From NCBI GenBank assembly GCA_030750865.1, contig JASMHE010000010.1:86534-150533 (forward strand): 64,000 bases of DNA, given 5' to 3'. The position numbers and the translations under genes were made by a program. Of the stretch, positions 2,386-46,493 are shown one piece after another. This DNA is from Alphaproteobacteria bacterium. GTDB taxonomy: Bacteria > Pseudomonadota > Alphaproteobacteria > Micavibrionales > Micavibrionaceae. The notes below the pieces were generated by a model. The model saw nothing but the letters and a program-made list of their open reading frames with translations. It was not told where the DNA came from and did not search any database. How positions within the stretch are numbered: position 1 is the first letter of the stretch; each line of letters begins with the position of its first letter.

Positions 2386-2844
2386 ATGTTTGAAAAATTA
2401 TCGGCACGCGTTAGTGCCTTATTCGCAAAGAAGCCGAAGGTTCTGGTTGATTTGGCGACATATCAAAAAGGATATCAGCGTACGGTCTGGTACACGGCCG
2501 GCACCGATCTGGAGCGCAACATATTCGATCAGTGTTTTGAACAGGATGTTGATTGTCTGGATATTGACGAGGCCGGACAGGTCAGCCGCGATGCGCTTGT
2601 CTCTATTGTCGGTACGGCGATGAATATTGCACTGGACTCGCAAATCAGAAAAAACATGGAAACGGCAGATGATCATGAGCGAGCCACGTTGCGTACGCAG
2701 TTGCATCGTGGCCGTGATATCAAGGATAGCGCGGACGTTTTTGTGACTGTGGCGTTACAACAAGGTGAACATCTGTTGGCGCAAGAGCAGGGGCGTGTCA
2801 CGTATTTAAGACTAGTGCCAAACCCATCAAGCGCCCCATCGTAA
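2386..2844 (+). CDS. Hypothetical protein, 152 aa, no recognised motif
   Basis: ATG start preceded by AAAGGG about 10 nt upstream. Followed by a strong hairpin terminator. The composition is ordinary and I recognise no family signature. Confidence 0.6.
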   Translation: MFEKLSARVSALFAKKPKVLVDLATYQKGYQRTVWYTAGTDLERNIFDQCFEQDVDCLDIDEAGQVSRDALVSIVGTAMNIALDSQIRKNMETADDHERATLRTQLHRGRDIKDSADVFVTVALQQGEHLLAQEQGRVTYLRLVPNPSSAPS

Positions 2845-2892
2845 ATCGGTATATATGATTTTCCATTTCCTGCTTGTGAGGCAGGCATAATA

Positions 2893-2914
2893 AAAGGGCG
2901 CAAATGCGCCCTTT
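2893..2914. terminator. Bidirectional rho-independent terminator between convergent genes
   Basis: AAAGGGCGC (2893-2901), loop AAAT, GCGCCCTTT (2906-2914), giving a 9-bp GC-rich stem. T-rich tails on both strands (TTTGTTGTATT on +, TTTTATTATG on -). Confidence 0.65.
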
Positions 2915-2944
2915 GTTGTATTCGTATCATATACCCTTTCAGGT

Positions 2945-3160
2945 TTACATGCCGAGGCCACCTGGACCGCCCGGTCCGCTTGGGTCGACTTTGTCCATAC
3001 CGGGTGCTTGTGCAACTTCCGGTGCCGGACCTTGTACTGCAAGGTTAAAGGCGTTCTGGGCATATGCCTGACTCATTACCGGTTCACTTGTTCCGAGTTC
3101 GCCTGGTGTTCCCACTTGCGCCTGAATCTCTGTAATTTCTTCCAATCCTGTCATGTTCAT
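2945..3160 (-). CDS. Hypothetical small acidic protein, 71 aa, Gly/Pro-rich C-terminus
   Basis: ATG preceded by AGGGG 6-7 nt upstream. The sequence ends ...VQGPAPEVAQAPGMDKVDPSGPGGPGGLGM. About 8 acidic versus 1 basic residue. No family recognised. Confidence 0.5.
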   Translation of the reverse strand: MNMTGLEEITEIQAQVGTPGELGTSEPVMSQAYAQNAFNLAVQGPAPEVAQAPGMDKVDPSGPGGPGGLGM

Positions 3161-3237
3161 AGTACCCCTGTGTTGTCTAACTATAATAAGAATACATAAA
3201 AAGGGTTTAAAATTGGTTAAGATAAGGGGGGTATGTC

Positions 3238-3564
3238 TTAAATATGATGAATAATCAGCGGCAGGTATCCATGTTCGACCGCTTCGCCGTCAACGGCAGG
3301 CATTTCAACGATTTGCACCTGATAGGAGTTCTGCAGATATTTGCCCAGACGGGGTTCGATCGGCAGACCGAAGTCGCGCGTATCGCCATCTTCCATAATT
3401 AACATAAGCTGGCCATCTGTGATGTCATATTCCAGCCATGACAATTCCTTTGTAAAGGGTTTGTCATGAATCAGAATCGCCTCGGCCGTGTTCGTCACCA
3501 TAAGTTCGACACGAACATTCTGGTCCATCAAGAGGCCTTTATTATATTCTTGTTGCTGATTCAT
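3238..3564 (-). CDS. Hypothetical small acidic protein, 108 aa
   Basis: Complete ORF in the same orientation as its neighbours. About 18 D/E versus 7 K/R by my count. It shows weak collinear similarity to the adjacent 116-aa protein. No family recognised. Confidence 0.6.
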   Translation of the reverse strand: MNQQQEYNKGLLMDQNVRVELMVTNTAEAILIHDKPFTKELSWLEYDITDGQLMLIMEDGDTRDFGLPIEPRLGKYLQNSYQVQIVEMPAVDGEAVEHGYLPLIIHHI

Positions 3565-3619
3565 TGTCCGGTTAACCCTAGAAAAGCAGATTCAAGCTGA
3601 AATAATAAGGTGTATTTTG

Positions 3620-3631
3620 TTTTATTTCAAT
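3620..3631 (-). promoter_or_regulatory. Short copy of the recurrent TTTTATTTCAAT element (ATTGAAATAAAA in gene orientation)
   Basis: The exact 12-mer TTTTATTTCAAT lies 56 nt upstream of the 108-aa gene start. In gene orientation it reads TTGAAA, a 17-nt spacer, then TATTAT, which resembles a -35/-10 pair. Confidence 0.35.
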
Positions 3632-3656
3632 GATGTTTCCGTGAAATAGGGGTGTT

Positions 3657-4007
3657 TTACGCGGTTTCTTTGATGTGCGGGGCGTTCGGGTCATCGCGTT
3701 TGACGGCGACTTCACTGGCTGCGACCGGCAGTTTGTTCCGCATGTCGATCTGGAAAAGCGCCACATTGTCCGTTTGTTTGAATTTTTCCAGCAAATCGTC
3801 TTTCAGCGCGCTTCCGAGCCGTTGCACCGTATGGTTTTTGTAGTGAAATAAAAGTGTACCGGTTTCGGTTGAAACGGAGACATAATCAACCTCATCACGT
3901 AACGGCTTTTCGTAAAGAATGGATATTTCATCACGGTCCGTGCTTGCGTAAATATCAACAAGCATTTCATCTGTTAGCGCATGTTCAAGTAAATTTATGT
4001 CCGGCAT
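3657..4007 (-). CDS. Hypothetical small acidic protein, 116 aa
   Basis: Complete ORF. About 22 D/E versus 13 K/R. Weak collinear similarity to the 108-aa neighbour. I see no obvious Shine-Dalgarno sequence. Confidence 0.55.
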   Translation of the reverse strand: MPDINLLEHALTDEMLVDIYASTDRDEISILYEKPLRDEVDYVSVSTETGTLLFHYKNHTVQRLGSALKDDLLEKFKQTDNVALFQIDMRNKLPVAASEVAVKRDDPNAPHIKETA

Positions 4008-4057
4008 TTTTCAACTTACGAGCGTGGAAAAGGATCAGGATGATCCCTATATGCTAA

Positions 4058-4085
4058 AAGCATAGCAGAAAAACCTGCTATGCTT
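4058..4085 (-). terminator. Hairpin downstream of the 491-aa gene (candidate terminator)
   Basis: AAGCATAGCAG (4058-4068), loop AAAAAC, CTGCTATGCTT (4075-4085), a perfect 11-bp stem. On the minus strand the stem is followed by TTTTAGCAT, a short U-tract. Confidence 0.5.
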
Positions 4086-4116
4086 ATAGTCCTATTTTTG
4101 AATAAATTATCGATTC

Positions 4117-5592
4117 TTAGCTCAAAGCCAGTTCGTCATTTCCAACAGCCGGGCCTTCTCTTTCCTGATCAAGGCCAGCAACGGCATCACCAAGACCAAG
4201 ACTGTCTCCGAATTGTGTGACGATACGGCCCTGGATCATGTCAACTGTCATGCTCTGGAAGCGTTCGACGAGACCGTCAAGCGCGCCGCCGAACAATGAA
4301 TTTGCCATTGAAAGCATGCTTGCCGCACCTGAAAGCAATTGGAATTTGATACTTTCCGCGTTGAAACCAAGAAGGTTATCACTGCCGAAGTTCATGTTTT
4401 CGCCAATCATGGAGGCTTGTCTAAAGCGTTCCGTGAGTGATCCTTCGCCTTGTGCGAATGCGCGCAGAGAATCACGTCCGATACCCATCATCCGTTCTTC
4501 TGCTGTTCCGGCAGTTGCGGACGGATCGATACCTGCGTCCGGATCACTTGGATCGGCGGCCACGACATCGCCATCTGCTGCTGGGTCTGCTTCTTCGGAT
4601 GAGAAATCAAGACCTGTTGCTTCCGGTGTTGCGGCGATCCAGTCACCCATTTCTAAGGCAAGACTATCTGCGCCGACAAAATCAAGTGTTGCGATTGTGG
4701 CTTCTGTCGCACCGACAGGAACATCGACGAACAGATCGTGAAAGCTGCCCTGAATGGCTTCTGCTTTACTTTCGTCCATGACATAGTGCCTGATACCGGC
4801 ATCTGTTACCAGAAAACCACCAGTTGCAGATACGATAGAGCGTCTGATAGCAACGGCTTCTCTGGTTGGTAGCTCGATATCTGTCAAGCGTCCGCCACGA
4901 TCTGCGAGATCCTGCAATGTGCGTCTTTGTCCACGAGACAAAAGGCTTGCATAGTCAGGATCGGCAAGTCTGCGTGCTGCATCTTCCGCATCGATTGACA
5001 TCTTTTGTGTGTGTTTGCTCAGCACAGCGCGTTTCAGACCATTGTCCCAAAGGGCGCGACCTGAGGCCATTGCCATGTTGCCCATACGAACAACGCCGCG
5101 TTGTGCAATGTCGCCGCCAATTTCAAAGAAACGTGTTGCGATTTGCTGTGATTGTTGTGCGATGCGCGCTGAACGAGACATAATCGCAGGTGCAGCTGAT
5201 TCCATCGCTCTTGCGAGTTCCGGTGAAGAGCTCAGGTTTCGTGACATAAAGCTGTTAAACTCGTCTGTGTTACGAATGGCGCCCGGACCAACACGGGTTA
5301 ACCGTGAAGAGGCCTGTTCAAAAACGCTTGCATTCTCACTCAGGGTGCGTGTTGCGCGTTGCAGTGTACCTGCAAATTCACCTGAGTTCAGCGCTGCGCG
5401 TGTTGCATCATCAATGTGCTCTGAACCTCTGACGCCATCAAGAAATGTATCAAGGCGTGATGCGTCACCGCTGCGGATCACATCGGCGAGTTCATCGCCA
5501 TGATGTAACAGCAGGTCATCAAGCGCTTGGCTGTGTGAGGCTAAGCCTCTAAAGCCTTTAAGTGCTGATCTGATTAATGCGTTCGGTGTCAT
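4117..5592 (-). CDS. Hypothetical protein, 491 aa, with an acidic D/P/A-rich internal linker
   Basis: Long uninterrupted ORF. AAGGA lies about 9 nt upstream of the ATG, which is 34 nt downstream of the 321-aa gene stop, suggesting an operon. No signal peptide, TM segment or catalytic motif recognised. Confidence 0.7.
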   Translation of the reverse strand: MTPNALIRSALKGFRGLASHSQALDDLLLHHGDELADVIRSGDASRLDTFLDGVRGSEHIDDATRAALNSGEFAGTLQRATRTLSENASVFEQASSRLTRVGPGAIRNTDEFNSFMSRNLSSSPELARAMESAAPAIMSRSARIAQQSQQIATRFFEIGGDIAQRGVVRMGNMAMASGRALWDNGLKRAVLSKHTQKMSIDAEDAARRLADPDYASLLSRGQRRTLQDLADRGGRLTDIELPTREAVAIRRSIVSATGGFLVTDAGIRHYVMDESKAEAIQGSFHDLFVDVPVGATEATIATLDFVGADSLALEMGDWIAATPEATGLDFSSEEADPAADGDVVAADPSDPDAGIDPSATAGTAEERMMGIGRDSLRAFAQGEGSLTERFRQASMIGENMNFGSDNLLGFNAESIKFQLLSGAASMLSMANSLFGGALDGLVERFQSMTVDMIQGRIVTQFGDSLGLGDAVAGLDQEREGPAVGNDELALS

Positions 5593-5626
5593 TGGTTCCG
5601 TCCTTTTCTTTTATTTATTCTTTGTC

Positions 5627-6592
5627 TTATGCCGCAGCGCCAAGTGTCATGCCCGGGATAGGTGTCGCCGGTGTAATATCCTGCGCTTGCGTATTAAATT
5701 CGCTTGTCAGTTTGTCCATGTAAGCAATCATTGCCTGATCTGGATCGATTGCTGTTTCAAATCCTGCTGACAGACCGCCGCTTTGTCCAAGTGTAAACTC
5801 GCTATCTGTTGCACGTGGTGCGGATGCATCTCTGTCCAGTGTTGTTGTTTCAGGTTCTGCAACAGGCTCCGATGCTGAAATTCCCATTCTCTCAAGTTGT
5901 GTGTCGTATTCATCAATTGTCGCATCCATCTCCGAGATAACGCCATCAACAACCATTTGGTTTGCAAATTCGGCTTCTTGTTGATCTTGGCCGATATTCG
6001 TTGTGATGGAGTGTGTTGTCACTGCACCTTCGAGTGTCAGCGCTGCGGCTGAATTAAACGGGCTCATAATGCGTGCTGTGTTTACAGCTGCAGTTCCTGC
6101 GCGGGCTGCAATGCTACCGCCGCGAACCGCTGCGAGTGCTGCACCGCCGGCACCGGCTGTGGCTGCGGACACTGCGATAAATGTACCAACTTCGAATACG
6201 CCTTGTGTACCGTACATCATTGCACGTTCATAATCGTTACGTGGCTCTGTGAATTGTCCAAGTCCACTTAATGATTCTGTGCAACTGAAATCTGTTTTGT
6301 CCAAATCAACGCCAGGAACAAGGTTGACGCCATGTCTGATGCCGTGGTTATAGGCCATAAGACCGAGGTCTCCGACAGCGCCAACCGTGCCGGTTACGCC
6401 GTTAACAACACCCTGTCCTGCAACTTGAAGCATACGGCCTGGATTTTCGACGGCGTATGATGCAAAGCCGGAAACAGCATCTGATGCTGCTTCGAATGTT
6501 TCACGTGGGTGTGTTACAGCATGAGAGACGCTTGACGCGACGCTAGAGGCTGTGTCTGAAAGCCAATCTTTTGCTGAACTAAAGAAACCCAT
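5627..6592 (-). CDS. Hypothetical protein, 321 aa, Ser-rich N-terminus and Gly/Ala-rich hydrophobic segments
   Basis: ATG preceded by GGAAGGAAAAGGG. The N-terminus is MGFFSSAKDWLSDTASSVASSVSHA. Small-residue hydrophobic stretches include GVVNGVTGTVGAVGDLGLMAY and FEVGTFIAVSAATAGAGGAALAAVRGGSIAARAGTAAV. No family recognised. Confidence 0.7.
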   Translation of the reverse strand: MGFFSSAKDWLSDTASSVASSVSHAVTHPRETFEAASDAVSGFASYAVENPGRMLQVAGQGVVNGVTGTVGAVGDLGLMAYNHGIRHGVNLVPGVDLDKTDFSCTESLSGLGQFTEPRNDYERAMMYGTQGVFEVGTFIAVSAATAGAGGAALAAVRGGSIAARAGTAAVNTARIMSPFNSAAALTLEGAVTTHSITTNIGQDQQEAEFANQMVVDGVISEMDATIDEYDTQLERMGISASEPVAEPETTTLDRDASAPRATDSEFTLGQSGGLSAGFETAIDPDQAMIAYMDKLTSEFNTQAQDITPATPIPGMTLGAAA

Positions 6593-6698
6593 TTCGTGTA
6601 CCCTTTTCCTTCCGTTTTAATCTTGCCCCTATTATGGTGAGGAAAACTGAAGAAATCGTTAACAAAATGGGTTATGAGAAATAAAATTAAAATAAGAA

Positions 6699-6744
6699 TC
6701 TTTTTATTTCAATGGGTTAATAATATAAAATTTTATGTAATTTT
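6699..6744 (-). promoter_or_regulatory. Bipartite AT-rich element shared with the ctrA-fliI intergenic region
   Basis: TCTTTTTATTTCAAT (6699-6713) and TTTTATGTAATTTT (6731-6744) are both identical to 42059-42073 and 42089-42102. The element starts 107 nt upstream of the 321-aa gene start. In gene orientation it reads TTGAAA, 17 nt, then TAATTT. Confidence 0.5.
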
Positions 6745-6762
6745 TATGTTTTTACATAGAAA

Positions 6763-9410: not shown

Positions 9411-9773
9411 TCAAAGCAATCCGATCTGTTCGAATTTGGACCGGATGATGTCACTGTCGAACGGTTTCATAATATATTCGTCCGCGCCTGCGGCGAGGGC
9501 TGCCTGTATATGATCTGTGTCATTTTCCGTTGTGCAGAAGATGACTTTCGGTTGTGTGGGTGTCGGGTGGGCGCGTAATTTGCACATGAACTCCATGCCG
9601 TTCATAACGGGCATGTTCCAGTCCAGCATAATGACGTCAGGCATCGTATTTTGACATGATTCGAATGCTTGTTGGCCGTCTGCGGCTTCGGCGCAGTCGA
9701 TGTCCATTTCTTCCAGAATGCGCCGGACAACTTTGCGGACAACACTGCTGTCATCAACGATAAGGCATAACAT
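9411..9773 (-). CDS. Single-domain CheY-like response regulator
   Basis: 120 aa. Receiver motifs are present: IVDDS, the phospho-acceptor context IMLDWNMPVMNG, and KPF near the C-terminus. There is no output domain. Confidence 0.9.
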   Translation of the reverse strand: MLCLIVDDSSVVRKVVRRILEEMDIDCAEAADGQQAFESCQNTMPDVIMLDWNMPVMNGMEFMCKLRAHPTPTQPKVIFCTTENDTDHIQAALAAGADEYIMKPFDSDIIRSKFEQIGLL

Positions 9774-9869
9774 AGAGGCGTAATCCTTTTACAGGTGAGT
9801 GTGTTTTCTTACCCGTTAGGATTTCGTATCTCTGCCAAGAAGTAAATAGCGTGTCAGGCGCAAAAAAGG

Positions 9870-10505
9870 TTAGGCGAGCGAGATTTCAAAGGAAACGTGC
9901 GTGTCCTGTTCATCATGCAGTGCGATCTGATAACCGCATTCTTTTGCCAAGACCGCAGAAACGTAGGGATGCACAAGACGCGCATCCAGATCGCCAACAG
10001 GCAATAAAAGCTGGAGACATTCGTCAACATAGTCGCGAATTTTTACACGTTCGCCGGAAGCGGTGACAATCGTATTCTCATTATCGCCTGACGTGACGGT
10101 GATTGCACCACCTTTGGGCAGGCATTCCTGCGCCAGCATCAGTGTTGCCGTTAGAACTTTACAAAAACCGTCAGGGCCGTCATTCAGGCCGAGGTCGGCA
10201 TGCGGGTCCCAGTTTTGCGTGACTTTGCTGTCAACACTGAGGAGTTTGTCAAAGGCCGCGTGGACATCTTCGGGTTTGATGCTGGCATCTTTGCCGCCTT
10301 GCCCGTAAACCAGACGAAAAACCTGTAATCGCGCTGCTGCTGTTTTGGCGCTGTGTCCGATCAGGCCAAATGCTTCTTCCGCGCCATCATCCATGCCCAT
10401 TTCTTCGGCAAACTCGATACCGTTCTGAATCGCGCCGACGGGGCTGACCAGATCGTGACAGATGCGGGATGCCATTAATTCCAGTAAAAGCGGGCTGAAT
10501 GTCAT
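9870..10505 (-). CDS. chpT: Histidine phosphotransferase ChpT
   Basis: 211 aa. The N-terminus LLELMASRICHDLVSPVGAIQNGIEF is HisKA-like with the phosphorylatable His. The C-terminal half is a degenerate ATPase-like fold without G-boxes. Both features are typical of alphaproteobacterial ChpT. Confidence 0.8.
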   Translation of the reverse strand: MTFSPLLLELMASRICHDLVSPVGAIQNGIEFAEEMGMDDGAEEAFGLIGHSAKTAAARLQVFRLVYGQGGKDASIKPEDVHAAFDKLLSVDSKVTQNWDPHADLGLNDGPDGFCKVLTATLMLAQECLPKGGAITVTSGDNENTIVTASGERVKIRDYVDECLQLLLPVGDLDARLVHPYVSAVLAKECGYQIALHDEQDTHVSFEISLA

Positions 10506-12037: not shown

Positions 12038-12922
12038 TTACAAAATAGATTCGATATAGGATTTGATATCGTCACGCAGGGACGGGTCCTTTAACGCATA
12101 GGTGATGTTGGCTTTGATAAAACCGTTACGGCCGCCGCAATCAAAATGGTCGCCTTCAAAACGCAGGCCGTGGAACGGCTGGTTGCCGATCAGCTTTGCC
12201 ATCGAGTCGGTCAGCTGTATTTCACCGCCCGTTCCTTTTTCAAAAGCGCTGAGATAGTTGAAAACTTCCGGTTGCAGGATATAACGCCCGATCACGCACA
12301 GTGTTGACGGGGCTTTGTCGATGTCCGGCTTTTCAACCAGTCCTTGAATATCAACGGTTTTGCCGTTATCCGATGCCGGATCGATAATACCGTATTTATA
12401 TGTTTCTTCACGCGGGACATCTTTTACAGCGACAATATTGCCGCCATGTTCATTATAGGCATCCATCATCTGTGTAAGACAGCCACGTTCCCAGTGAATG
12501 ACATCATCGGGCAGAATAATGGCAAATGGCTCATCACCGATCAGCTTCTTGGCGCACCAGATGGCGTGGCCGAGGCCCAGCGGGTTCGCCTGACGTGTGC
12601 AAAAAAGCTGCGCTTCCGACATTTCGCTGGTTTTGACTTTGTCGATCATGTCGTCTTTGCCGCGCTGTTCCAGTGTGCGCATCAATTCGGGCTGATGGTC
12701 GAAATGTTCTTCGATCATTTCTTTTTGGCGCCCTGTCACGAAAACAAATTCTTCGATTCCGGCTTCACGGGCTTCTTCGAACGCGTGCTGGATGAGCGGA
12801 CGATCATTCAGCGGCAGCATTTCTTTTGGCATGACCTTCGTGGCAGGAAGAAAGCGCGTGCCCAATCCGGCAATCGGGAAGACCGCTTTGCGCACTGGCT
12901 TGAAAGATGACGTGTTCTGCAT
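12038..12922 (-). CDS. galU: UTP--glucose-1-phosphate uridylyltransferase
   Basis: 294 aa. The N-terminus is KAVFPIAGLGTRFLPATKVMPKEMLP and VEKP is present. The architecture is GalU-like throughout. Confidence 0.93.
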   Translation of the reverse strand: MQNTSSFKPVRKAVFPIAGLGTRFLPATKVMPKEMLPLNDRPLIQHAFEEAREAGIEEFVFVTGRQKEMIEEHFDHQPELMRTLEQRGKDDMIDKVKTSEMSEAQLFCTRQANPLGLGHAIWCAKKLIGDEPFAIILPDDVIHWERGCLTQMMDAYNEHGGNIVAVKDVPREETYKYGIIDPASDNGKTVDIQGLVEKPDIDKAPSTLCVIGRYILQPEVFNYLSAFEKGTGGEIQLTDSMAKLIGNQPFHGLRFEGDHFDCGGRNGFIKANITYALKDPSLRDDIKSYIESIL

Positions 12923-12956
12923 AAAAATACTTTACTTTATTCGCGTTGTGGCAATC

Positions 12957-13718
12957 CTATTCCCTGTTTTCGTCCTTTTCAAGGGACAATAGGGTTTTGC
13001 GCTCTATTTCTTTGATGTTTTCTGTCATTTTTGCGCTGTACTGGTCTGATAATATTGCGGAATTCCACTTTGTTGTGCTGCGCATAACACGCTGGAACGG
13101 ATAAAGGTCGTTTTCATCAATCGGGCTATGTGCGCGCACGACAGCGGGCATAAAGCGGAAATCCCACCATTCTTGCGGCAAAGGCAGGATGTCCAGATCG
13201 CAGCGGCGTGCGGCGTCGCACATCGCGTTCTGCAATTGTGTGCGGTTTTGTATGACCTCGTGCGGTAAATCTGTGAAGTTGCGGGCGGCCGGATTATGAC
13301 GGTCGGGATCGGGCGCGAAATAATCAAACGGCGTGCCCATATCAACGGTATGCCCGTTGTGGTCTAGCGGTACGATATCAATAGCCATGCCGCGCGGATG
13401 ACCGCCTTGTCCGGGGGCGGATAATAGTGACGGATGCACGTTGAAGTCCTGCATCTTGCGCTGGGCATCGACCGGACGGTAACAATCCTTGAGGCTCAGC
13501 ATCCATCCATATGCGCGATGGCAAAGATGGGCTGCGATTAATGTGATTTGCAGAATATCCTTATGTCCCCACATGATATCCGTGCCGGCGGGATAAAGCT
13601 GCCCGAACAAGTTATGCGGGTGGTCCGGCTTGGCGTAAACGATGTCGATTTCAATAGGGTGGTGATCGGCAAATGCATTGAACGGTAACAGATTATCCGG
13701 CGATACGGTATGTGTCAT
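12957..13718 (-). CDS. M15-family D-alanyl-D-alanine dipeptidase-like protein (VanX/DdpX-like) with an altered second metal motif
   Basis: 253 aa. It contains CYRP, then H-x6-D (GGHPRGMAID, H107/D114), then DMGTPFDYF, then EWWDF where the family normally has E-W-W-H. The D codon is read directly at 13161-13163. Confidence 0.75.
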   Translation of the reverse strand: MTHTVSPDNLLPFNAFADHHPIEIDIVYAKPDHPHNLFGQLYPAGTDIMWGHKDILQITLIAAHLCHRAYGWMLSLKDCYRPVDAQRKMQDFNVHPSLLSAPGQGGHPRGMAIDIVPLDHNGHTVDMGTPFDYFAPDPDRHNPAARNFTDLPHEVIQNRTQLQNAMCDAARRCDLDILPLPQEWWDFRFMPAVVRAHSPIDENDLYPFQRVMRSTTKWNSAILSDQYSAKMTENIKEIERKTLLSLEKDENRE

Positions 13719-13738
13719 AATGTTATTTCAGCAATATG

Positions 13739-14185
13739 TTATTTCAGCAATTTATCGCGTGCTTCGTTCAGTTTTGCGGCCATCCATTCCGATCCGTCCT
13801 GATCGGGGTGTATTTTCTTGATCAATTTCTTATGGGCGGCCTTGATATCATCGGTCGTGGCTTTTTCATCCAGCCCCAGAATTTCAAGGGCTTCTTCGCG
13901 GCTGATCTTGGTGCCGGATTGTGGGGCGGCGCTTCCCGGCTTTTTTTGTCTGTTTTTCTTTGAAAATGGTGACGCCTGATAAAAGAAAGGCAATACAGCG
14001 ACCAGCAGCCCGATTGCCGCCGGAAGTTTGCCTGTGATAGCGAGGTAAAACACGCCGACCAGAAACGCAATGAAAAAGCCGGTCAGGAACAGGCTTTTGA
14101 TCTGGCTGACCGAGGCACTCAGGAAAAAACGGTATAGACCGATGACGGCAAAGAGTAATCCCAATCCTAATAGAAAATAATGCAT
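13739..14185 (-). CDS. Membrane-anchored J-domain protein
   Basis: 148 aa. Two or three N-terminal TM helices are followed by a C-terminal J domain, EEALEILGLDEKATTDDIKAAHKKLIKKIHPDQ, with the HPD motif. Confidence 0.8.
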   Translation of the reverse strand: MHYFLLGLGLLFAVIGLYRFFLSASVSQIKSLFLTGFFIAFLVGVFYLAITGKLPAAIGLLVAVLPFFYQASPFSKKNRQKKPGSAAPQSGTKISREEALEILGLDEKATTDDIKAAHKKLIKKIHPDQDGSEWMAAKLNEARDKLLK

Positions 14186-14322
14186 ATCTGACCTTTGTTA
14201 TTACCGTTGTCTTATTCTGATCTGTTTTTGACCTAATCCGGCGTCACGGAATTTTTGCGTGACTTCGGGTGTGATCTTGTCGCATATTATTGTCACACAC
14301 GATAAATCATACGGGGAACATT

Positions 14323-16209
14323 ATGGCAGAAAAACAGCCTGAACACAGCAGCGAAAACAGAAATAAAACGGATTTTGCGCAAAAGTTGCAGGATTTGCGG
14401 CAGATGATGCGCAAAAAGAAGATTGATGCCTATCTGATTCCCAAAGAAGACGAATGGCAGGGCGAGTATTTGCCGGCACGGGCGGAACGGCTGGTCTGGA
14501 TGAGCGGCTTTACGGGGTCTGACGGGACAGGCATTGTGACGCAGGATAAAGCCTGTGTCTTTACCGATGGCCGTTATGAAACGCAAGTGCGTGATGAGCT
14601 GGCCGGTACGCCGTATGACCCACAAGACCGCAAGCCGGGTGAATACGGCCCTGAAGACTGGCTTGTTGCCAATCTGGCTGATGGTGATGTTGTCGGATAT
14701 GACCCGCGTCTTTATACCGTATCTGGTGTGGCTGCACTGAAAGCAAAGCTGGAAGGGCCAGGCAAGCATATTACATTAAAGCCCGTAAAACAGAATCTGG
14801 TGGATGCGATCTGGACGGACCAGCCCGCCTTTCCACGTGAAGCCGTGCGTAAATATCCGCATAAAATGGCAGGCAGAAATTCCCTGACCAAACGCAAAGA
14901 GATTGCAAAAACAATTGCGGCGGCAGGCGCGGATTCGTTTTTCATCGCCGCGCCGGATTCCATTGCGTGGCTGTTGAATATTCGGGGCAATGATGTGCCG
15001 ATGACACCGTTTGCGCTGTCGTTCGCCGTATTGCATGCTGATGCGTCTGTGGATTGGTTCGTGCAGGATGGTCATCTGGATGACACAAATAAAAGCGCAA
15101 TCGAAAAACATATCGGTACAGGTTTGCGCGTTCATGCCATTGATGGTCTGGATAAATTCTTGAAAACGCAAAAGAAGAAGGCCGTTTTTCTGGATCGCAG
15201 AATTACGCCGCAACATTATCTGGATGTATTGACGAAGGCCAAAGCCAAGCCGGTGTACGGGACCGAGCCCTGCCAAACGGCAAAAGCCGTGAAAACAAAG
15301 GCCGAGCAGGAGTCGATTAAAGCCGTGCATGTGCAGGATGGTGTGGCCGTGACGAAATTCCTGAAATGGGTGGATGATAACGCGCCAAAAGGCAAGTTGA
15401 CCGAAATTGATGTTGAAAACAAACTGCGTTCATACCGTCAGGACGGCAAAGATTACGAGCAGGACAGCTTCGGCACGATTGCGGGCTGGGCCGGAAACGG
15501 GGCGGTGATCCATTATCACGCCACACCGGACAAACATAAGAAGATCAAAGGCAAAGGGCTGTTGCTGGTGGATAGCGGCGGCCAGTACAAAGGCGGTACA
15601 ACCGACATCACGCGCACAATGGCCGTCGGTAAACCGACAAAGGCCATGTGCGAGAATTTTACGCGCGTGCTGAAGGGGCATATCCGTATTGCGAATTTAC
15701 GTTTTCCGGAAGGAACGCAATCCGGCCAGATTGATGTGCTGGCCCGTGCGGCATTATGGCAGGATGATCTGGATTACAAGCATGGCACAGGGCACGGCGT
15801 TGGCTGTAATCTGTCTGTGCATGAGGGCGGGGCAGGGATTGCATCGTCTTTGTCTTATATTTTCAAGGCCGGCATGTTGGTATCGAACGAGCCGGGCTAT
15901 TACGAAAAAGACAAATACGGCATCCGTATCGAAAATCTGATTATGGTTGAAGATGATGGCCGGAATAAAACAACAGACCGCGTAATGTTGCGTTTTAATA
16001 CGGTTTCACTTGCGCCGCTTGATCGCCGCTTGATCGTGGCTGATATGTTGTCTGATGATGAAGTCGCGTGGCTGAATGAATATCACAGCCGTGTGTATCA
16101 GGAAATTGCGCCGCATCTGGATCAGGATGAAAAGGCATGGCTGCGTGCGGCGACACAGCCGATTACGCGTGGCGCACAGACCCCGGCGGCAAAGCCATCT
16201 GTGTCATGA
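14323..16209 (+). CDS. pepP: Xaa-Pro aminopeptidase (M24B, aminopeptidase P family)
   Basis: It has a creatinase/prolidase N-terminal domain plus a pita-bread domain (VDSGGQY, HGTGHGVG, SNEPGYY, IRIEN). I prefer the ATG at 14323 (GGGGA 8 nt upstream) over the TTG at 14290 used by the ORF track. Confidence 0.9.
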   Translation: MAEKQPEHSSENRNKTDFAQKLQDLRQMMRKKKIDAYLIPKEDEWQGEYLPARAERLVWMSGFTGSDGTGIVTQDKACVFTDGRYETQVRDELAGTPYDPQDRKPGEYGPEDWLVANLADGDVVGYDPRLYTVSGVAALKAKLEGPGKHITLKPVKQNLVDAIWTDQPAFPREAVRKYPHKMAGRNSLTKRKEIAKTIAAAGADSFFIAAPDSIAWLLNIRGNDVPMTPFALSFAVLHADASVDWFVQDGHLDDTNKSAIEKHIGTGLRVHAIDGLDKFLKTQKKKAVFLDRRITPQHYLDVLTKAKAKPVYGTEPCQTAKAVKTKAEQESIKAVHVQDGVAVTKFLKWVDDNAPKGKLTEIDVENKLRSYRQDGKDYEQDSFGTIAGWAGNGAVIHYHATPDKHKKIKGKGLLLVDSGGQYKGGTTDITRTMAVGKPTKAMCENFTRVLKGHIRIANLRFPEGTQSGQIDVLARAALWQDDLDYKHGTGHGVGCNLSVHEGGAGIASSLSYIFKAGMLVSNEPGYYEKDKYGIRIENLIMVEDDGRNKTTDRVMLRFNTVSLAPLDRRLIVADMLSDDEVAWLNEYHSRVYQEIAPHLDQDEKAWLRAATQPITRGAQTPAAKPSVS

Positions 16210-16242
16210 CGTTGGCTATATGGATCCATAAACAAGACAAAT

Positions 16243-16276
16243 AAAAAAGGTTTCAGAAATGCTGAAACCTTTTTTT
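16243..16276. terminator. Bidirectional rho-independent terminator (pepP / rpsU convergent pair)
   Basis: AAAAAAGGTTTCAG (16243-16256), loop AAATG, CTGAAACCTTTTTT (16262-16275). A/T runs flank it on both sides. Confidence 0.75.
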
Positions 16277-16296
16277 AATTCATATATCGGGAGAAA

Positions 16297-16497
16297 TTAA
16301 TCTCTCTCGCGACGCTTGCGTTCAAGCTTGCGCCAGCGACGTACTGATTCCGACTTCTCGCGTTTCTTCTTCTCAGAAGGTTTCTCGAAGTCACGACGCA
16401 GTTTCATCTCGCGGAAAATTCCTTCGCGTTGCATCTTCTTTTTCAAAGCACGCAAGGCCTGCTCGACGTTATTGTCACGTACGTTTACGCTTACCAT
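16297..16497 (-). CDS. rpsU: 30S ribosomal protein S21
   Basis: [48 protein letters not shown]... The start at 16497 is preceded by GAGGTGA. The ORF-track start at 16515 is less likely. Confidence 0.95.
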
Positions 16498-16604
16498 TAT
16501 ATCACCTCTTTCCAATTCTAGATTTTCGGTAAGCCCGAAAGTGAGCCATTTCTATACGCTTCCGCGCAGAAATGCAAGCTCTAAAAGACTGTTCTGTGGG
16601 TATA

Positions 16605-18242
16605 TTATACCGCTTTAAGGTTTAAAGCCGCGTTAAGAAGGCGTTTTGTATAGGATTCCTGCGGGGAATCAAAGATTGCAGTGGCTGCGCCTTGTTCGAC
16701 AATTTTGCCATCTTTCATCACAATCAGGTCGTGCGCCATTGCTTTGACCACGCGTAAATCATGGCTGATGAACATATAAGACAGGCTGTATTTTTCCTGC
16801 AAGCCGCGCAGCAGGTCAACGATTTGCGCCTGTACGGATAAATCGAGCGCAGAGGTCGGCTCATCCAGTACAACAAATTCCGGTGCCAGAACCATTGCGC
16901 GCGCAATAGAGACACGTTGGCGCTGTCCGCCGGAAAATTCATGCGGGTAACGTTGGCGCGTGTCGGGATCAAGTGCCACATCACGCATGGACTGCACGAT
17001 GCGGTCTTCGCGTTCGGATTTGCTGATATCCTTGAAATGCACTTCCAGTCCTTCGCCGATGATATTTTCAATCGGCAGGCGCGGTGACAGAGAGCTGAAC
17101 GGGTCCTGAAATACGATTTGCAGTTTGTCCCGTAATGGCCGGAATGCTTTGCGGCCGATATTGCTGATGGTTTCATCGTGAAAGCGCACCGACCCGTCAT
17201 AAATTTGTTGCAGGCCAAGCAATCCGTATCCCAGCGTTGACTTGCCGGAGCCTGATTCCCCGACCACGCCGAGTGTTTGCCCTTTGCGGCATGTCAGGCT
17301 GATATCGTCAACGGCTTTGACCCATGCTGTCGGTTTGCCGAAGAAATTCTTTTGTTTCGGGAACCATATTTTCAGATTATCGGCCTGTATAATGGGGGCG
17401 TTACTGTCGTTGGCGGCAATGGCTTCGCCCTTTGGTTGGGCGCTGAGTAACATTTTTGTGTAGGGATGTTCCGGTGCTTTGAAAAGCGTTTTGCAGTCTT
17501 TCTTTTCAACCAGTTCACCATGTTGCATGACGCAAACGGTATCTGCCATTTTTTCGACGATGCTCAGATCATGTGTAATCAGCAGCAGTGACATGCCGAG
17601 CTTTTCCTTCAGGTCTTGCAGAAGAGAAAGAATTTGTGCCTGCACAGTCACATCCAGTGCCGTTGTCGGTTCGTCGGCAATTAGCAATTCGGGATCATTG
17701 GCAAGGGCCATCGCGATCATAACGCGCTGGCGCTGGCCGCCGGATAATTCAAACGGATAGGCATCAAGTCTGTCTGTCAAATTTTCAAGGCCGACAAGGG
17801 TCAGCAGTTCGATAACGCGGGCTTTGACCTCTTTGGGGGATTTCAGTTGATGCAGACGAATGACTTCGCCGATTTGCTTCTCTATGGAATGAAGCGGGTT
17901 CAGGCTGGTCATCGGTTCTTGAAAAATCATGCCGATCTGTTTGCCGCGAATGGCACGCATATTTTTATCGCTGAGTTGCATCAGATCATGCTCTGCGCCT
18001 TTGTCATCTCGATAGAAGATATGCGCATTACCGGGGTGTGATGCACGCGGATAGGGCAGCAATTTCATGATGGAAAGGGCTGTCACGGATTTGCCCGAAC
18101 CGGATTCGCCGACCAGTGCGACCGTGTCACCCTTTTGAATGTCAAAAGAGACATCCTTGACGGCGTGCACGGTGCTGTCATGTGTTTTAAAATCCACAGA
18201 CAGATTTTGTATTGATAAGAGTCGCGAATCAGTCATAACCAT
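16605..18242 (-). CDS. yejF: Peptide/microcin-type ABC transporter, fused double ATPase (YejF-like)
   Basis: 545 aa with two ABC cassettes. Walker A is GESGSGKS twice, the signature is LSGGQRQR and FSGGQRQR, and Walker B is LLIADEPT and FVVLDEPT. Confidence 0.85.
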
Positions 18243-43624: not shown

Positions 43625-44061
43625 TGGCGGACCTTGAATCGCTTATCAAATACAGAAAGCACATTGTTGACGAAAAACAGCGCGTTTTGTCGCAACTGTA
43701 CCGCGAAGCTGAACAGATTGAACAAAGAAAGCGCGATATTCTGGATCAAATCGAAAAGGAAAAAGCCTTTGCCGCAAAAGAGTCCGGTTCTGCGGTCGCG
43801 ACGGCGCTTGCGGCTTATCTTGATAGTGCGCGCAAAGATATTGCGCGGCTTGATGTCATGTTGCAAAAAATGGAAAAACGCATTGCCGATGCGCAGGAAG
43901 ATATGCGGGCGGCTTTTGCCGAACAAAAGAAAATCGAAATCGTACAGCGAGAACGGCTGGCTGAAGAAGAAGCGGAGATAAAAAAGAAAGAAGGGGAGGC
44001 GTTTGATGAAATTGCGATCGAGGGCTTCCGCCGCCGTCAGGAAGAAGAAGAGACGTCCTAG
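43624..44061 (+). CDS. fliJ: Flagellar export protein FliJ-like coiled-coil protein
   Basis: 145 aa and entirely helical and charged. The start overlaps the fliI stop (TAATG). The position directly after fliI is canonical for fliJ. Confidence 0.7.
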   Translation: MADLESLIKYRKHIVDEKQRVLSQLYREAEQIEQRKRDILDQIEKEKAFAAKESGSAVATALAAYLDSARKDIARLDVMLQKMEKRIADAQEDMRAAFAEQKKIEIVQRERLAEEEAEIKKKEGEAFDEIAIEGFRRRQEEEETS

Positions 44062-46493
44062 CCTGAATAGCCGCCGCGCTGCACGGGCGCGTGACCGTCA
44101 AATTGTATAAATTGATCCGCTTTCCCCTGAAATGATAATTCCCCTGCCGCGCCGACAACTTCAAGCGCGTTTGTATAGGTTTGACGCATACGTTGCTGCA
44201 TGGGCGCGCTGAGCGGTTTTTGCGTGCGGACAATCAAATCCAGCTTGGCTTTATCTTGTTTGATCATGCGGTGATAGCCGTCTATTTGTACGGGCCCCAT
44301 GCGGTTTAACGATAAATCAAAAATGAAGCGTGTCATTTTGTTCTTGTCTTCTGTTTCGTCGTCATCATTATCGCCGCCATGCTCTTGCTTGTAATGCAGC
44401 ATAATATGTTGCAGATCCCCTTCGGCATGAAATGGCAGCGGTATGGTTTTCCAGTCGGGTGCGGCTTGATCTGTCGATAAACGGCCTGTGCTGCCGATAT
44501 CGCGTGTCAGGCGGCTGAGCAGGTCGGATTTACCTGCAGTTTTCAAAGACTCAATGGTTTTGTCGCCAAGCCATCCGCTGAGGTCGCCGGAGCGGATGAC
44601 GGCAATCATCAACAGAGCGGCGGCCGGAAGGCGCGCAGGCGTTGACGGATTTGGGGTGACTTGTGCCATATGCTGTGTGACGTGTGCGGCTAGCGTATTT
44701 TGCTGCAGCAATTGGTTCAACTCTTCAAGGGCGGGCCACTGGAAATTGGCCAGTTGCATCAGGGTTGGCGGCTGTGTAATGCCGGCCGGATTATTCACGG
44801 CCCCTGCATGCCCTGCGGATGTTGTGGCGCTATTTTGCTGCGCAAGTTCGATTTGCGCGCCCAGTGGCAGATTGTCAGCCGGAAATTGCAGCGCGTAAAA
44901 TGTCTGGCTTTCGACATCATACGGCAAGTAAAGCCCTTCGGGGTGAAAGGCAGACAGCGCGGGCGATGGCTGTTGGAAAGAAATAATAGGCAAGTTATTT
45001 TGCGTGCGTCCGACAATATGTGCGGTTTTTGTCTGCGCGGGATGATGTGCGTTTGTAACGGGGTGTTTTTGTTGCGCGGCGGGCCATTCAAAATGGCGGG
45101 GTGTGCCGTCTGCCGCGTTTGGTACAGTCGGTTGAAAGGCCGCTGTTTGCGGTCCTGCTGTCAATGGCTGGAATGTAATTTGTGTGTTATCAATGCGCGT
45201 AATTTGTGCATCAAAGCTTTTGTTTTCCGTGAAGGCGGCGTGTTGCGATACGCTTTGTGTTGTTGAAACAAGGGGGGCGTTTTGCGTGACGGGTGTTGCT
45301 GTCAGCGTTGCCGGAATTTGTGCCGCTGTCGGCAGTCGTGCGCGCTGGAAGAGTGTCGATGATTGCGGCTGTGATGCTGTGGTTTGCGGGGCTGTAAAGG
45401 CAACTGGGGCACTGTTGGTCGTGGCTGTGTGCGCAGTAGCTGTGATGAGGCTTGATTGTAGCGCCGGTGACGCTTGTGGCGCGGCAGAGACGAGGGTCGG
45501 CGCGTTTTGCTGTAAAACCGGTTGTGCCGTTGTGCCTGTGTAGAGAGGAAAACCGGCAGGTGTTTGTTGTGCCGCGATGGTGTGTCGTGTTGATCCGGTG
45601 GTGGTCAGCGTATGCTGTGCTGTCGTGCCTTTCTGTGTATTCGTTTGCGCGCCGTTTTGTTGTAGCGGTGCGGATGGATAGGGCACGGTTGTCAATTGCG
45701 GTATGCCGCCGTTACCGGCAAGTGCGGTAAGGGCGAGTTGTGTTGTTGTTATTGTTAATGTGTTCGTCAGCGTGCGCTGCGCGGTTGTTTTCGGGAGCGC
45801 TTCAGCTGTTGTGTCAGAGGCTGGTTGTCCGCCTGTTTTTGTGACGGCATGCAGCAAATTTTGATAGCGCGGTGTTTCCGTTTGGGCCGGACGCTGTAAA
45901 TAACGTTCGACGTCCTGATCGGATAGCGGAATGAAACGCACGATGGCTTTTTCGGTGATAGGCTGACGGATTTTTTGTGCCGCATCGGCCTTCAGATACA
46001 TATTTTCTTCGTTGATTTTGACCGAATTATCGGGCGCGATATATTGACTGTCCGGCTTTGGCGGTGGGGACGGCTGGTCGGCTTTTACCGATTTGTCTGT
46101 TTGGTTTGGCGCTTGTGTCTCGGTCGTTTGAGGAGAGAACGACGATGACGTTGCACGGTCAGGCGTTGCTTGTTTTGGCGTGATGTGTGTGTCACGGCCT
46201 TTTGATCCGTTCCGGATTTCGATCTCGACGGTATCGCCTTCTTTGATATGTTGTGTTTGTTGTTTGGGAAGGTGTACGGTGACATCGCCGCGCGCTGTTC
46301 TGATGCGGGTTGTGCCATCGCTTTGTGTGTCCACGACGCGGCCTTCCAGTTTGGTCGGGCGCTTGATCGTGTGTATGTCACCATTGGCTGTTTTTTCAAT
46401 ACGCGCACGCACGGCGCTGTCCGATTTGCGGCTGCTGGCGGCCGTCGGCTGTGGTATTTTCGGCGGTAACTGGGTTGATCCTGACTCGCTCAT
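44058..46493 (-). CDS. Large Thr/Gln/Ala/Pro-rich protein, candidate hook-length control protein (FliK-like)
   Basis: 811 aa, last gene of the flhA-flhF-flhG transcription direction. It has a long low-complexity centre. The C-terminal ~100 aa (MTRFIFDLSLNRMGPVQIDGYHRMIKQDKAKLDLIVRTQKPLSAPMQQRMRQTYTNALEVVG) follow the FliK C-terminal domain pattern. The coding call is firm; the family call is about 0.45. Confidence 0.5.
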   Translation of the reverse strand: MSESGSTQLPPKIPQPTAASSRKSDSAVRARIEKTANGDIHTIKRPTKLEGRVVDTQSDGTTRIRTARGDVTVHLPKQQTQHIKEGDTVEIEIRNGSKGRDTHITPKQATPDRATSSSFSPQTTETQAPNQTDKSVKADQPSPPPKPDSQYIAPDNSVKINEENMYLKADAAQKIRQPITEKAIVRFIPLSDQDVERYLQRPAQTETPRYQNLLHAVTKTGGQPASDTTAEALPKTTAQRTLTNTLTITTTQLALTALAGNGGIPQLTTVPYPSAPLQQNGAQTNTQKGTTAQHTLTTTGSTRHTIAAQQTPAGFPLYTGTTAQPVLQQNAPTLVSAAPQASPALQSSLITATAHTATTNSAPVAFTAPQTTASQPQSSTLFQRARLPTAAQIPATLTATPVTQNAPLVSTTQSVSQHAAFTENKSFDAQITRIDNTQITFQPLTAGPQTAAFQPTVPNAADGTPRHFEWPAAQQKHPVTNAHHPAQTKTAHIVGRTQNNLPIISFQQPSPALSAFHPEGLYLPYDVESQTFYALQFPADNLPLGAQIELAQQNSATTSAGHAGAVNNPAGITQPPTLMQLANFQWPALEELNQLLQQNTLAAHVTQHMAQVTPNPSTPARLPAAALLMIAVIRSGDLSGWLGDKTIESLKTAGKSDLLSRLTRDIGSTGRLSTDQAAPDWKTIPLPFHAEGDLQHIMLHYKQEHGGDNDDDETEDKNKMTRFIFDLSLNRMGPVQIDGYHRMIKQDKAKLDLIVRTQKPLSAPMQQRMRQTYTNALEVVGAAGELSFQGKADQFIQFDGHAPVQRGGYSG

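Follow-up and report, generated by a model that had tools for sequence, protein, structure and literature searches.

What kind of locus is the run of six open reading frames (ORFs) that lies between lepA and purH in the 64-kb stretch of alphaproteobacterial DNA analysed here (the window), and why does none of its proteins resemble anything known? The first-pass annotation had singled out one forward and five reverse ORFs at this place as unrecognisable, and ORF listing confirmed all six at the coordinates given for them. We show below that five of the six form an ancient block at this position and that the two large genes of the block carry a hypervariable cassette, which exists as at least three old, constrained and very different alleles within a single species. 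The two large ORFs are termed P1 (321 amino acids, aa) and P2 (491 aa), the small genes are named by the length of their products in amino acids, with o116 and o108 also called sA and sB, and A, B and C denote versions of the cassette; names made of L and a number (such as L007, L018 or L025) denote contigs or loci used for comparison. The features concerned are the following.

4358-6476, strand not assigned: hypervariable cassette of 2,119 bp from P1 codon 39 to P2 codon ~411, delimited by blastn breakpoints
5627-6592, reverse strand: P1, 321 aa, known from the ORF, its AlphaFold2 (AF2) model and a family search
4117-5592, reverse strand: P2, 491 aa, acidic and without cysteine, known from the ORF and allele comparisons
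3657-4007, reverse strand: o116 (sA), 116 aa, acidic and beta-rich, paralog of o108 and positional counterpart of the 122-161-aa sA of relatives
3238-3564, reverse strand: o108 (sB), 108 aa, acidic, the best-conserved member of the block, from its orthologs and AF2 model
2945-3160, reverse strand: o71, 71 aa, acidic and Gly/Pro/Ala-rich, ending in GLGM, positional equivalent of 50-92-aa genes of relatives
2386-2844, forward strand: o152, 152 aa, convergent with the others, ratio of nonsynonymous to synonymous polymorphism (pN/pS) 0.19, no counterpart in relatives

Comparison of the window with contig L007 by blastn revealed no nucleotide similarity between the 2,119 bp at 4358-6476 and the 2,120 bp at L007 9152-11271. 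The boundaries of this tract are sharp and its flanks are 97.4-98% identical between the two contigs; within the species overall, flank identity is 97.4-99.9%. Conserved ends are formed by codons 1-38 of P1 and by the last 80 codons of P2, which are nearly identical between alleles. The contig set to which L007 belongs has the same gene order with large genes of 308 and 503 aa. Between the window (allele A) and this set (allele B), protein identity falls to 38% for P1 and 30% for P2, as compared to 99.7-100% for LepA, PurH, o152, o71, o108 and o116, with the o116, o108 and o71 products 100% identical. Beyond the DNA breakpoint, about 210 residues of P1 are still homologous between the alleles (35% identity, E 3e-25), and its C-terminal ~100 residues are unrelated. 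The N-terminal ~410 residues of P2 could not be aligned between alleles (E > 1); homology resumes around residue 333 (E 2e-45), such that the C-terminal ~160 residues are homologous and the N-terminal ~330 are not.

How old are these alleles, and how do they move? Cassette versions were collected by looking up the invariant o116 gene, which yielded three classes on 15 independent contigs from different samples: class A (321+491 aa, as in the window), class B (308+503 aa) and class C (308+501 aa), with 5, 6 and 4 contigs, respectively. Classes B and C share 96% identity in P1 and 74.5% in P2. Within a class, cassettes are 98.9-100% identical, about as much as the flanks, and flanks from different classes are 99.2-99.4% identical, the same as within classes. 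Flank similarity does not track cassette class: the left flank of the class A contig L018 is 99.1-99.2% identical to class C contigs and only 97.8% identical to another class A contig. Divergence between B and C peaks at P1 codons ~200-260 and P2 codons 1-320, where the proportion of synonymous differences (pS) reaches 0.5-0.86 and is near saturation, and the ratio of nonsynonymous to synonymous divergence (dN/dS) along the cassette is 0.03-0.6, below 1. No introgressed tracts were seen on the 15 contigs in the genes adjoining the cassette. Because pS is near saturation, within-class diversity is normal and flanks are incongruent with cassette class, we conclude that the cassettes are old, constrained alleles that have been moved by recombination among backgrounds of one species. 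The locus displays what is looked for in a replacement-type allelic locus, namely non-homologous alleles, sharp boundaries, flanks ~98% or more identical, and shuffling among backgrounds. For a frequency-spectrum test of balancing or frequency-dependent selection, class counts of 5, 6 and 4 are too few.

Three other accounts of this pattern were considered and rejected. A recent sweep would leave the cassette more uniform than its flanks, and within-class diversity equals flank diversity; neither an assembly artefact nor a recent burst of positive selection agrees with the data above. A separate presence-absence difference lies on the far side of lepA: an ORF of 176 aa without Pfam hit between lepA and TspO is present in L007 (15247-15777), L014 and L017 and absent from the window (junction at 383-385), L013, L015 and L018, independently of cassette class.

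The small genes behave in the opposite manner. Population data from nine independent contigs support the coding status of the ORFs well, as had been claimed. In o116 and o108 every segregating site is synonymous (5/5 and 10/10, respectively, 15 in all); pN/pS amounts to 0.06 in o71 and 0.19 in o152, as compared to 0.03 in lepA; o116 and o108 each occur as one protein variant and o71 as two. The four small genes are thus almost invariant and under purifying selection. Other observations of the first-pass annotation also stood: Shine-Dalgarno-like tracts precede four of the ORFs (P1, P2, o71 and o152), P1 and P2 are 34 nt apart and lack signal peptides, and the small proteins are acidic. In fact all six proteins are acidic (pI 4.0-5.4) and none has a signal peptide.

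Is the block an insertion, as the wording 'inserted between lepA and purH' implied? The comparison of this interval in related genomes, which had been recommended, gave the opposite answer. The block fills the purH-lepA slot in six further lineages; it is therefore ancestral there and not an insertion. The same order was found in five more distant lineages (L025, L028, L029, L030 and L031), and the sixth contig ends inside P2. PurH of these lineages shares 80% (L025) or 65-69% (L028, L029, L030, L031) identity with that of the window, and LepA of the latter four 74-81%. In the relatives, a P1 homolog directly follows purH, and the genes ahead of purH are the same; on contigs that extend far enough, P1 (612-933 aa) is succeeded by a giant P2 (1,545-1,890 aa), sA (122-161 aa), sB (120-121 aa), a tiny gene (50-92 aa), one opposite-strand gene and lepA. 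Three of these lineages have an extra Gly-rich gene ahead of P1, termed 'pre' (224-636 aa), which in L028 and L030 encodes clear hydrophobic segments. The idea of six genes as one unit accordingly needs trimming: P1, P2, o116, o108 and o71 keep their order across genera, and o152 has no counterpart, its position being taken in relatives by an unrelated 87-113-aa membrane protein or a 374-aa protein. Since the opposite-strand gene is not conserved, o152, itself a real gene, is placed outside the conserved block. Taken together, the block is ancient, vertically inherited and specific to a clade of uncultured marine alphaproteobacteria, with the order (pre)-P1-P2-sA-sB-tiny.

The proposal that the cluster is a recently acquired genomic island was discarded: there is no tRNA and no flanking repeat, GC content is 0.42-0.53 in the cluster as compared to 0.47-0.54 in flanking genes, and the same slot is occupied in all lineages examined. 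The first reading of the window had likewise seen no sign of recent mobility. The P1-P2 pairing recurs in two unrelated contexts, L022 and L024. In L024 the pair stands between housekeeping genes without sA or sB, which suggests that P1-P2 is the minimal unit. In L031, a stretch of 175-230 aa is common to the 636-aa gene before P1 (8035-9945) and the giant P2 of that block (12914-17551), with 72-89% identity, which points to a recent duplication within the block or to gene conversion among its members.

ChpT, che genes and purH are found ahead of the block in every case. In the window (9411-10505, reverse strand) and in relatives, ChpT (HPTransfase), a single-domain response regulator, CheR and purH stand upstream of it; L028 and L031 carry a full cheA-cheW-cheY-cheB-cheR operon in that position, of which the window species seems to have a reduced version.

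The verdict 'unrecognisable' was upheld by the searches. Neither the six proteins nor both alternative alleles gave a significant match in Pfam, NCBIfam, PHROGs or PADLOC; the sequences of solved structures were searched with single proteins and with an sA/sB profile without a match, and tblastn of P1 and P2 against 50,697 phage genome records likewise returned nothing. An Rfam scan over the whole window gave no matches, and scans of the species representatives of GTDB gave none either; the literature was searched for earlier accounts of such a hypervariable locus, and nothing relevant came up. Identical proteins were found solely on marine metagenome contigs (TARA, JGI, ENA, Logan), and a scan of JGI metagenomes with o116 recovered two short contigs only. 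The profile searches that had been recommended and, for the P1 and o108 models, the Foldseek searches revealed no homology to characterised families.

What can nevertheless be said about P1? The protein starts with an M-G-F-F-S motif, continues with a helical module (aa ~20-150) that contains a Gly-zipper and one Gly/Ala hydrophobic segment (aa 138-156), and ends with a variable acidic tail and a short C-terminal helix. In an AF2 model built on a 77-sequence alignment, residues 20-150 are helical with predicted local distance difference test (pLDDT) values of 81-92, and the tail is mostly below 50, except for one long helix and the short, more confident C-terminal helix. Foldseek with this model found no significant neighbour in PDB or BFVD (best BFVD E 0.09). 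An exhaustive HMMER search, counted as clusters at 50% identity, returned 77 representatives of 228-988 aa, 31 of them at E <= 1e-10, which share the N-terminal ~220 residues and differ widely in the length of their C-terminal extensions. P1 homology in the purH-lepA relatives reaches E 1e-34, with 33-35% identity to L025. Pfam reported no relevant domain in any of the 77 members or in the giant relatives. Nearly all P1 proteins are cysteine-free, and conserved N-terminal motifs are found on both P1 and P2 across the clade.

The charges around the hydrophobic segment were examined over the 77 members. The segment has a mean Kyte-Doolittle (KD) hydropathy of 1.65; its C-terminal flank carries 1.99 K+R as compared to 0.08 D+E, and the N-terminal flank is net negative. 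Owing to this strongly positive C-terminal flank, the variable P1 tail is predicted to be cytoplasmic by the positive-inside rule. One family member of 577 aa lies outside the purH-lepA slot; after it, in the region L027 1178-8575 (GCA_964548445.1), come a gene for an ABC exporter of fused type (ABC_membrane + ABC_tran) and genes for sugar-nucleotide modification (formyltransferase, GFO/IDH/MocA oxidoreductase, CTP_transf_3 and short-chain dehydrogenase); this context allows a possible link of the P1 family to cell-surface glycan export.

P2 is known in a short and a giant form. The window P2 is homologous over its full length to a 521-aa gene downstream of the P1 relative P0005 (24% identity, E 2e-11). 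Signal peptides are absent from the giant P2 proteins, in which strong hydrophobicity is confined to one segment or hairpin ~200 aa before the C-terminus. Three of the four giants (1,688-1,890 aa) are cysteine-free, for which P is ~1e-7 at the cysteine frequency of the window, and that of L031 has one cysteine. The other long cysteine-free ORFs of the window are MotA, FliG, FliF and an orphan. Zero cysteine was for this reason dropped as evidence of export, since it is non-specific. In the flagellar region, an 811-aa Thr/Gln/Pro/Ala-rich ORF without cysteine or Pfam hit adjoins fliI (44058-46493, reverse strand); it is unrelated to the block by BLAST and, from position and composition, could be a divergent hook-length-control (FliK-like) protein.

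Among the small proteins, o108 has orthologs in four lineages at 33-37% identity (E ~1e-24). The relatives' sA proteins also match o108 (E 2.5e-8 and 1e-5), from which it follows that sA and sB are paralogs. Direct similarity of o116 is weak: it shares 26% identity with sA of L029 (E 0.003) and a common C-terminal tail, and a word-indexed search with o116 found no homolog outside the species. The AF2 model of o108, built on two sequences only (the window paralogs), has a pLDDT of 82, a predicted template modelling (TM) score of 0.73 and the topology six strands, short helix, two strands; Foldseek against PDB gave no significant neighbour (best E 0.13, TM score 0.34, a PH-like domain). The tiny proteins resemble each other only in Gly-rich composition and a C-terminal ending like G-[LF]-[GN]-[ML], which the L030 copy lacks.

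Three further features bear on transcription.

4058-4085, reverse strand: intrinsic-terminator-like hairpin after P2, with a perfect 12-bp stem followed by UUUU
2893-2914, acting on both sides: bidirectional terminator hairpin common to o152 and o71, from a terminator scan
6593-6762, reverse strand: region upstream of P1 with a CtrA-like box, a conserved block, a candidate promoter and AT-rich words

Both hairpins had been noticed at first reading. That at 4058-4085 has a folding energy of -21 kcal/mol (z -4.3), a stability not reached in any of 200 shuffles, and by prediction marks P1-P2 as a transcription unit of its own, apart from the invariant genes; the shared terminator at 2893-2914 was called by the scan. 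Upstream of P1, a CtrA-like box with one mismatch, TTAACGATTTCTTCA, is found at 6648-6662 and a conserved CATAATAGGGGCAAG at 6622-6636. The one-mismatch box and the following ATAATAGGG[GT]CAAG are both conserved in L025, the nearest relative, and absent in L028 and L029. A possible promoter, TTGAAA-N17-TAATTT, at 6684-6712 is overlapped by AT-rich words. The element that this region was said to share with the ctrA-fliI intergenic region exists, in the form of two collinear AT-rich words of 15 and 14 nt (6699-6713 and 6731-6744). Co-regulation with the flagellar programme, which had been raised as a possibility from it, is not clearly supported: the shared words are real and the one-mismatch box is kept in L025, but L028 and L029 have a plain sigma-70-type promoter. 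No perfect CtrA box (TTAA-N7-TTAA) lies near the cluster in the window; L030 has one, and L028 and L029 have no box and a promoter of canonical sigma-70 type. CtrA control is possible in the window lineage, but by this comparison it would not be a conserved property of the block.

Two additional repeats were recorded. In the o116-o108 intergenic region (3602-3632, reverse strand) a promoter-like TTGAAA-N17-TATTAT overlaps a 13-nt copy of the AT-rich word, TTTTATTTCAATG, and this copy before o108 hints at a shared promoter type. Upstream of P1, TAACCCATT occurs twice, 45 nt apart (6666-6674 and 6711-6719, reverse strand), and nowhere else in the window; two copies were reached in 5 of 100 shuffles, and the upstream copy differs by a single substitution in contigs with allele B.

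What, then, do these proteins do? The explanation that we favour, tentatively and in the knowledge that it may well be wrong, is that P1 and P2 form a membrane-anchored pair whose alleles are matched to each other, assisted by conserved accessory proteins. The Gly-zipper/hydrophobic hairpin of P1 would hold the protein in the inner membrane and leave its variable acidic tail in the cytoplasm. P2, as a short, soluble protein in this species and a giant, tail-anchored one in relatives, would be the partner of P1. Because replacement always affects the P1 tail and the N-terminal region of P2 jointly, the two may form an allele-matched interface on the cytoplasmic face. The invariant, beta-rich sA and sB, which are paralogs, would act together with the tiny protein as conserved subunits of this membrane-associated assembly, in an accessory or adaptor role; an envelope or cell-pole scaffold is our leading guess for the assembly. 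Cassette versions are moved between backgrounds by homologous recombination, for which P1 codons 1-38 and the last 80 codons of P2 provide the conserved ends, and the polymorphism could be kept by balancing (frequency-dependent) selection on the interface or by repeated allele import at a very fast-evolving locus.

Several points weigh against this explanation. Membrane insertion of P1 is predicted only, and 24 of the 77 family members fall below a KD of 1.6. The window P2 has no clear transmembrane segment; comparison of short with giant P2 by hhalign gave no detectable similarity (probability 0.1%), so that the two forms are equivalent by position only. Joint replacement of adjacent DNA would also be expected from physical linkage alone. 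Cytoplasmic variable parts give no obvious reason for diversifying selection, and 15 contigs do not separate balancing selection from neutral introgression. Finally, in the searches made here, no homology links any block member to a function.

A bolder form of the membrane-anchored pair can be imagined, in which the block is an unrecognised membrane-associated apparatus specific to this clade of abundant marine alphaproteobacteria and a lock-and-key P1-P2 combination is kept polymorphic by frequency-dependent selection, for example as a phage-entry target or barrier or as a self/non-self device. We consider this rather unlikely. By logic only, it recalls IdsD/IdsE of Proteus mirabilis, adjacent genes whose variable regions would have to match; unlike in that system, there are no type VI secretion system (T6SS) genes in the flanks of the loci examined, nor is there sequence or structural similarity.

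Could P1 and P2 instead leave the cell? Export in unfolded form via the flagellar type III apparatus or another signal-peptide-independent route, with P1 translocator-like, sA/sB as export adaptors and variability driven by phage, grazer or host pressure, is in our estimation improbable. It would agree with the N-terminal motifs of P1 and P2 that are kept across the clade, and with the lack of signal peptides, the acidic and helical character and a central hydrophobic hairpin. In the latter features and in being cysteine-poor with small acidic neighbours, the proteins are like the products of translocator-chaperone operons of type III secretion systems (T3SS; YopB/D-SycD, IpaB/C-IpgC); they differ in that the small-protein model has no chaperone neighbour, the window shows no injectisome genes and P2 of relatives reaches 1,890 aa. 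Substrates of 1,500-1,900 aa would be unusually large for flagellar export. The flagellar export apparatus (FlhA, FliI, FliF) is the sole secretion machine seen in the window, and a CtrA-like box lies upstream in three lineages, but this box is not conserved in L028 or L029. Absence of cysteine from three giant P2 proteins, with a single one in that of L031, would fit export, but MotA, FliG and FliF share the property. Class I T3SS chaperones have the topology alpha-beta-beta-beta-alpha-beta-beta-alpha, from which that of o108 differs, and besides the lack of a significant structural neighbour no secretion chaperone was among the 50 Foldseek matches listed for o108. The effector-plus-chaperone layout proposed at first reading is thus not supported. 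Moreover, the charges around the P1 segment follow the positive-inside rule, as in resident membrane proteins, the giants carry C-terminal transmembrane-like segments, and neither repeats-in-toxin (RTX) motifs nor type I secretion system genes adjoin the block.

The presence of old alleles at intermediate frequency, which would also speak for export, resembles the H-antigen polymorphism of flagellin (fliC). In Enterobacteriaceae, H-antigen alleles are old and have been moved between backgrounds by recombination through conserved ends. As at the locus studied here, the ends of fliC are conserved and the centre is unalignable between alleles of one species. In contrast to flagellin, P1 and P2 have no flagellin domains, the variable tract spans two adjacent genes and not the middle of one, and the variable parts are predicted to be cytoplasmic from the distribution of charges.

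Another possibility, to which we give a similarly small chance, is a cytoplasmic scaffold with neutral variation. P2 and the P1 tail would then be mostly disordered acidic spacers, for example of a membrane-tethered polar hub beside the chemotaxis operon, with little constraint on their sequence, and the alleles would be tracts introgressed from related species by recombination through the conserved ends, without selection to maintain them. It would agree with the four-fold variation in P2 length among genera (491-1,890 aa) and its unalignable sequence, with pLDDT below 50 over much of the P1 tail, with the predicted cytoplasmic location of the variable parts, with the constant place of the block downstream of ChpT, che genes and purH, and with a divergence between alleles that is like that between genera (P1 38% between alleles vs 33-35% to L025). 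However, dN/dS of 0.03-0.6 between B and C means constrained sequence, the replaced segments are nearly equal in length (2,119 vs 2,120 bp), adjacent genes hold no introgressed tracts, and three classes with species-level internal diversity and similar frequency (5, 6 and 4 contigs) suggest long persistence.

A polymorphic toxin-immunity or kin-recognition module, that is a delivered toxin or identity determinant with a matching partner as in contact-dependent inhibition (CDI), Rhs or Proteus IdsD/IdsE, we regard as very unlikely. The sharp breakpoints inside an ORF, with a variable tract that runs into the next gene and co-replaces adjacent parts of two proteins, are what CdiA-CT/CdiI and RhsI partnered with Rhs-CT would look like, where conserved sequence switches sharply to unrelated sequence. 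In the P1 family, the N-terminal module is conserved and the C-terminal extensions differ greatly in length (228-988 aa); the Gly-zipper segment is reminiscent of toxins that insert into membranes and has weak matches to tape-measure or ejection proteins. Against this stand the absence of any toxin, immunity or delivery domain in the 77 members or P2, a variable P1 tail that is short and mostly of low model confidence, the lack of orphan cassettes or repeats nearby, the conserved 3' end of the second gene, and a strict vertical synteny across genera unlike that of mobile toxin loci. Delivery systems (type V secretion/CDI, T6SS, type VII secretion, Rhs/PAAR) were not found in the 10-kb flanks of the lineages examined. 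In toxin-immunity cassettes the immunity genes co-vary with the toxin; here the pattern is the opposite, the would-be immunity genes downstream being almost invariant while the large genes vary. The initial toxin-plus-immunity suggestion is thus not borne out.

A domesticated phage remnant, in which P1 and P2 descend from prophage tape-measure or DNA-ejection proteins related to the T7-like portal and scaffold genes beyond lepA and TspO, is hardly credible: P1-family members have weak PHROG matches to tape-measure, pilot and internal virion proteins (best 1.7e-6, with two members matching phrog_3248 at 4e-17) and genes for portal, Bbp19 and scaffold proteins are situated ~1 kb outside the window, ahead of its start, but the tape-measure matches map onto low-complexity Gly-rich helices, the window P1 itself reaches E 0.034 at best, the giants and sA/sB have no PHROG match below 1e-4, tblastn against the phage records was negative, P1 and sB profiles found no relatives on viral contigs of IMG/VR, and no other phage gene occurs inside the block in any lineage examined. 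Likeness to tape-measure and ejection proteins is confined to long helical Gly/Ala-rich stretches, Gly-zipper segments, very variable length and these weak hits; the differences are the lack of a significant sequence or fold match and of accompanying phage genes. The neighbouring phage-like cluster itself (L001 15756-20608, ~1 kb beyond window position 1, past TspO) comprises a T7-type scaffold protein (PF05396), a Bbp19-like protein, a head-tail connector/portal (PF12236) and several small ORFs. Every strain examined has it beside TspO/lepA, genes for capsid, terminase or tail were not called in it, and it may be a decayed or domesticated podovirus remnant.

Old non-homologous alleles that occupy one slot and are exchanged by recombination are familiar from flagellin, O-antigen and toxin cassettes. 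Here, this population pattern occurs in proteins of no described family, within a five-gene block that is kept across genera of marine bacteria. Conserved order and position, together with strong purifying selection on the small genes, mark the locus as functionally important. That it is also under unusual evolutionary pressure is seen from the large genes, which diverge until they are no longer recognisable and persist in several versions in one species. New are the P1 protein family, with 77 clusters at 50% identity and no Pfam model, and the paralogous pair of small beta-rich proteins, whose model is without structural neighbour. Loci of this type are usually lost in metagenome-assembled genomes. 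Should the lock-and-key form of the P1-P2 pair prove true, identity or resistance determinants would gain a new class, one made up of protein families without known relatives.

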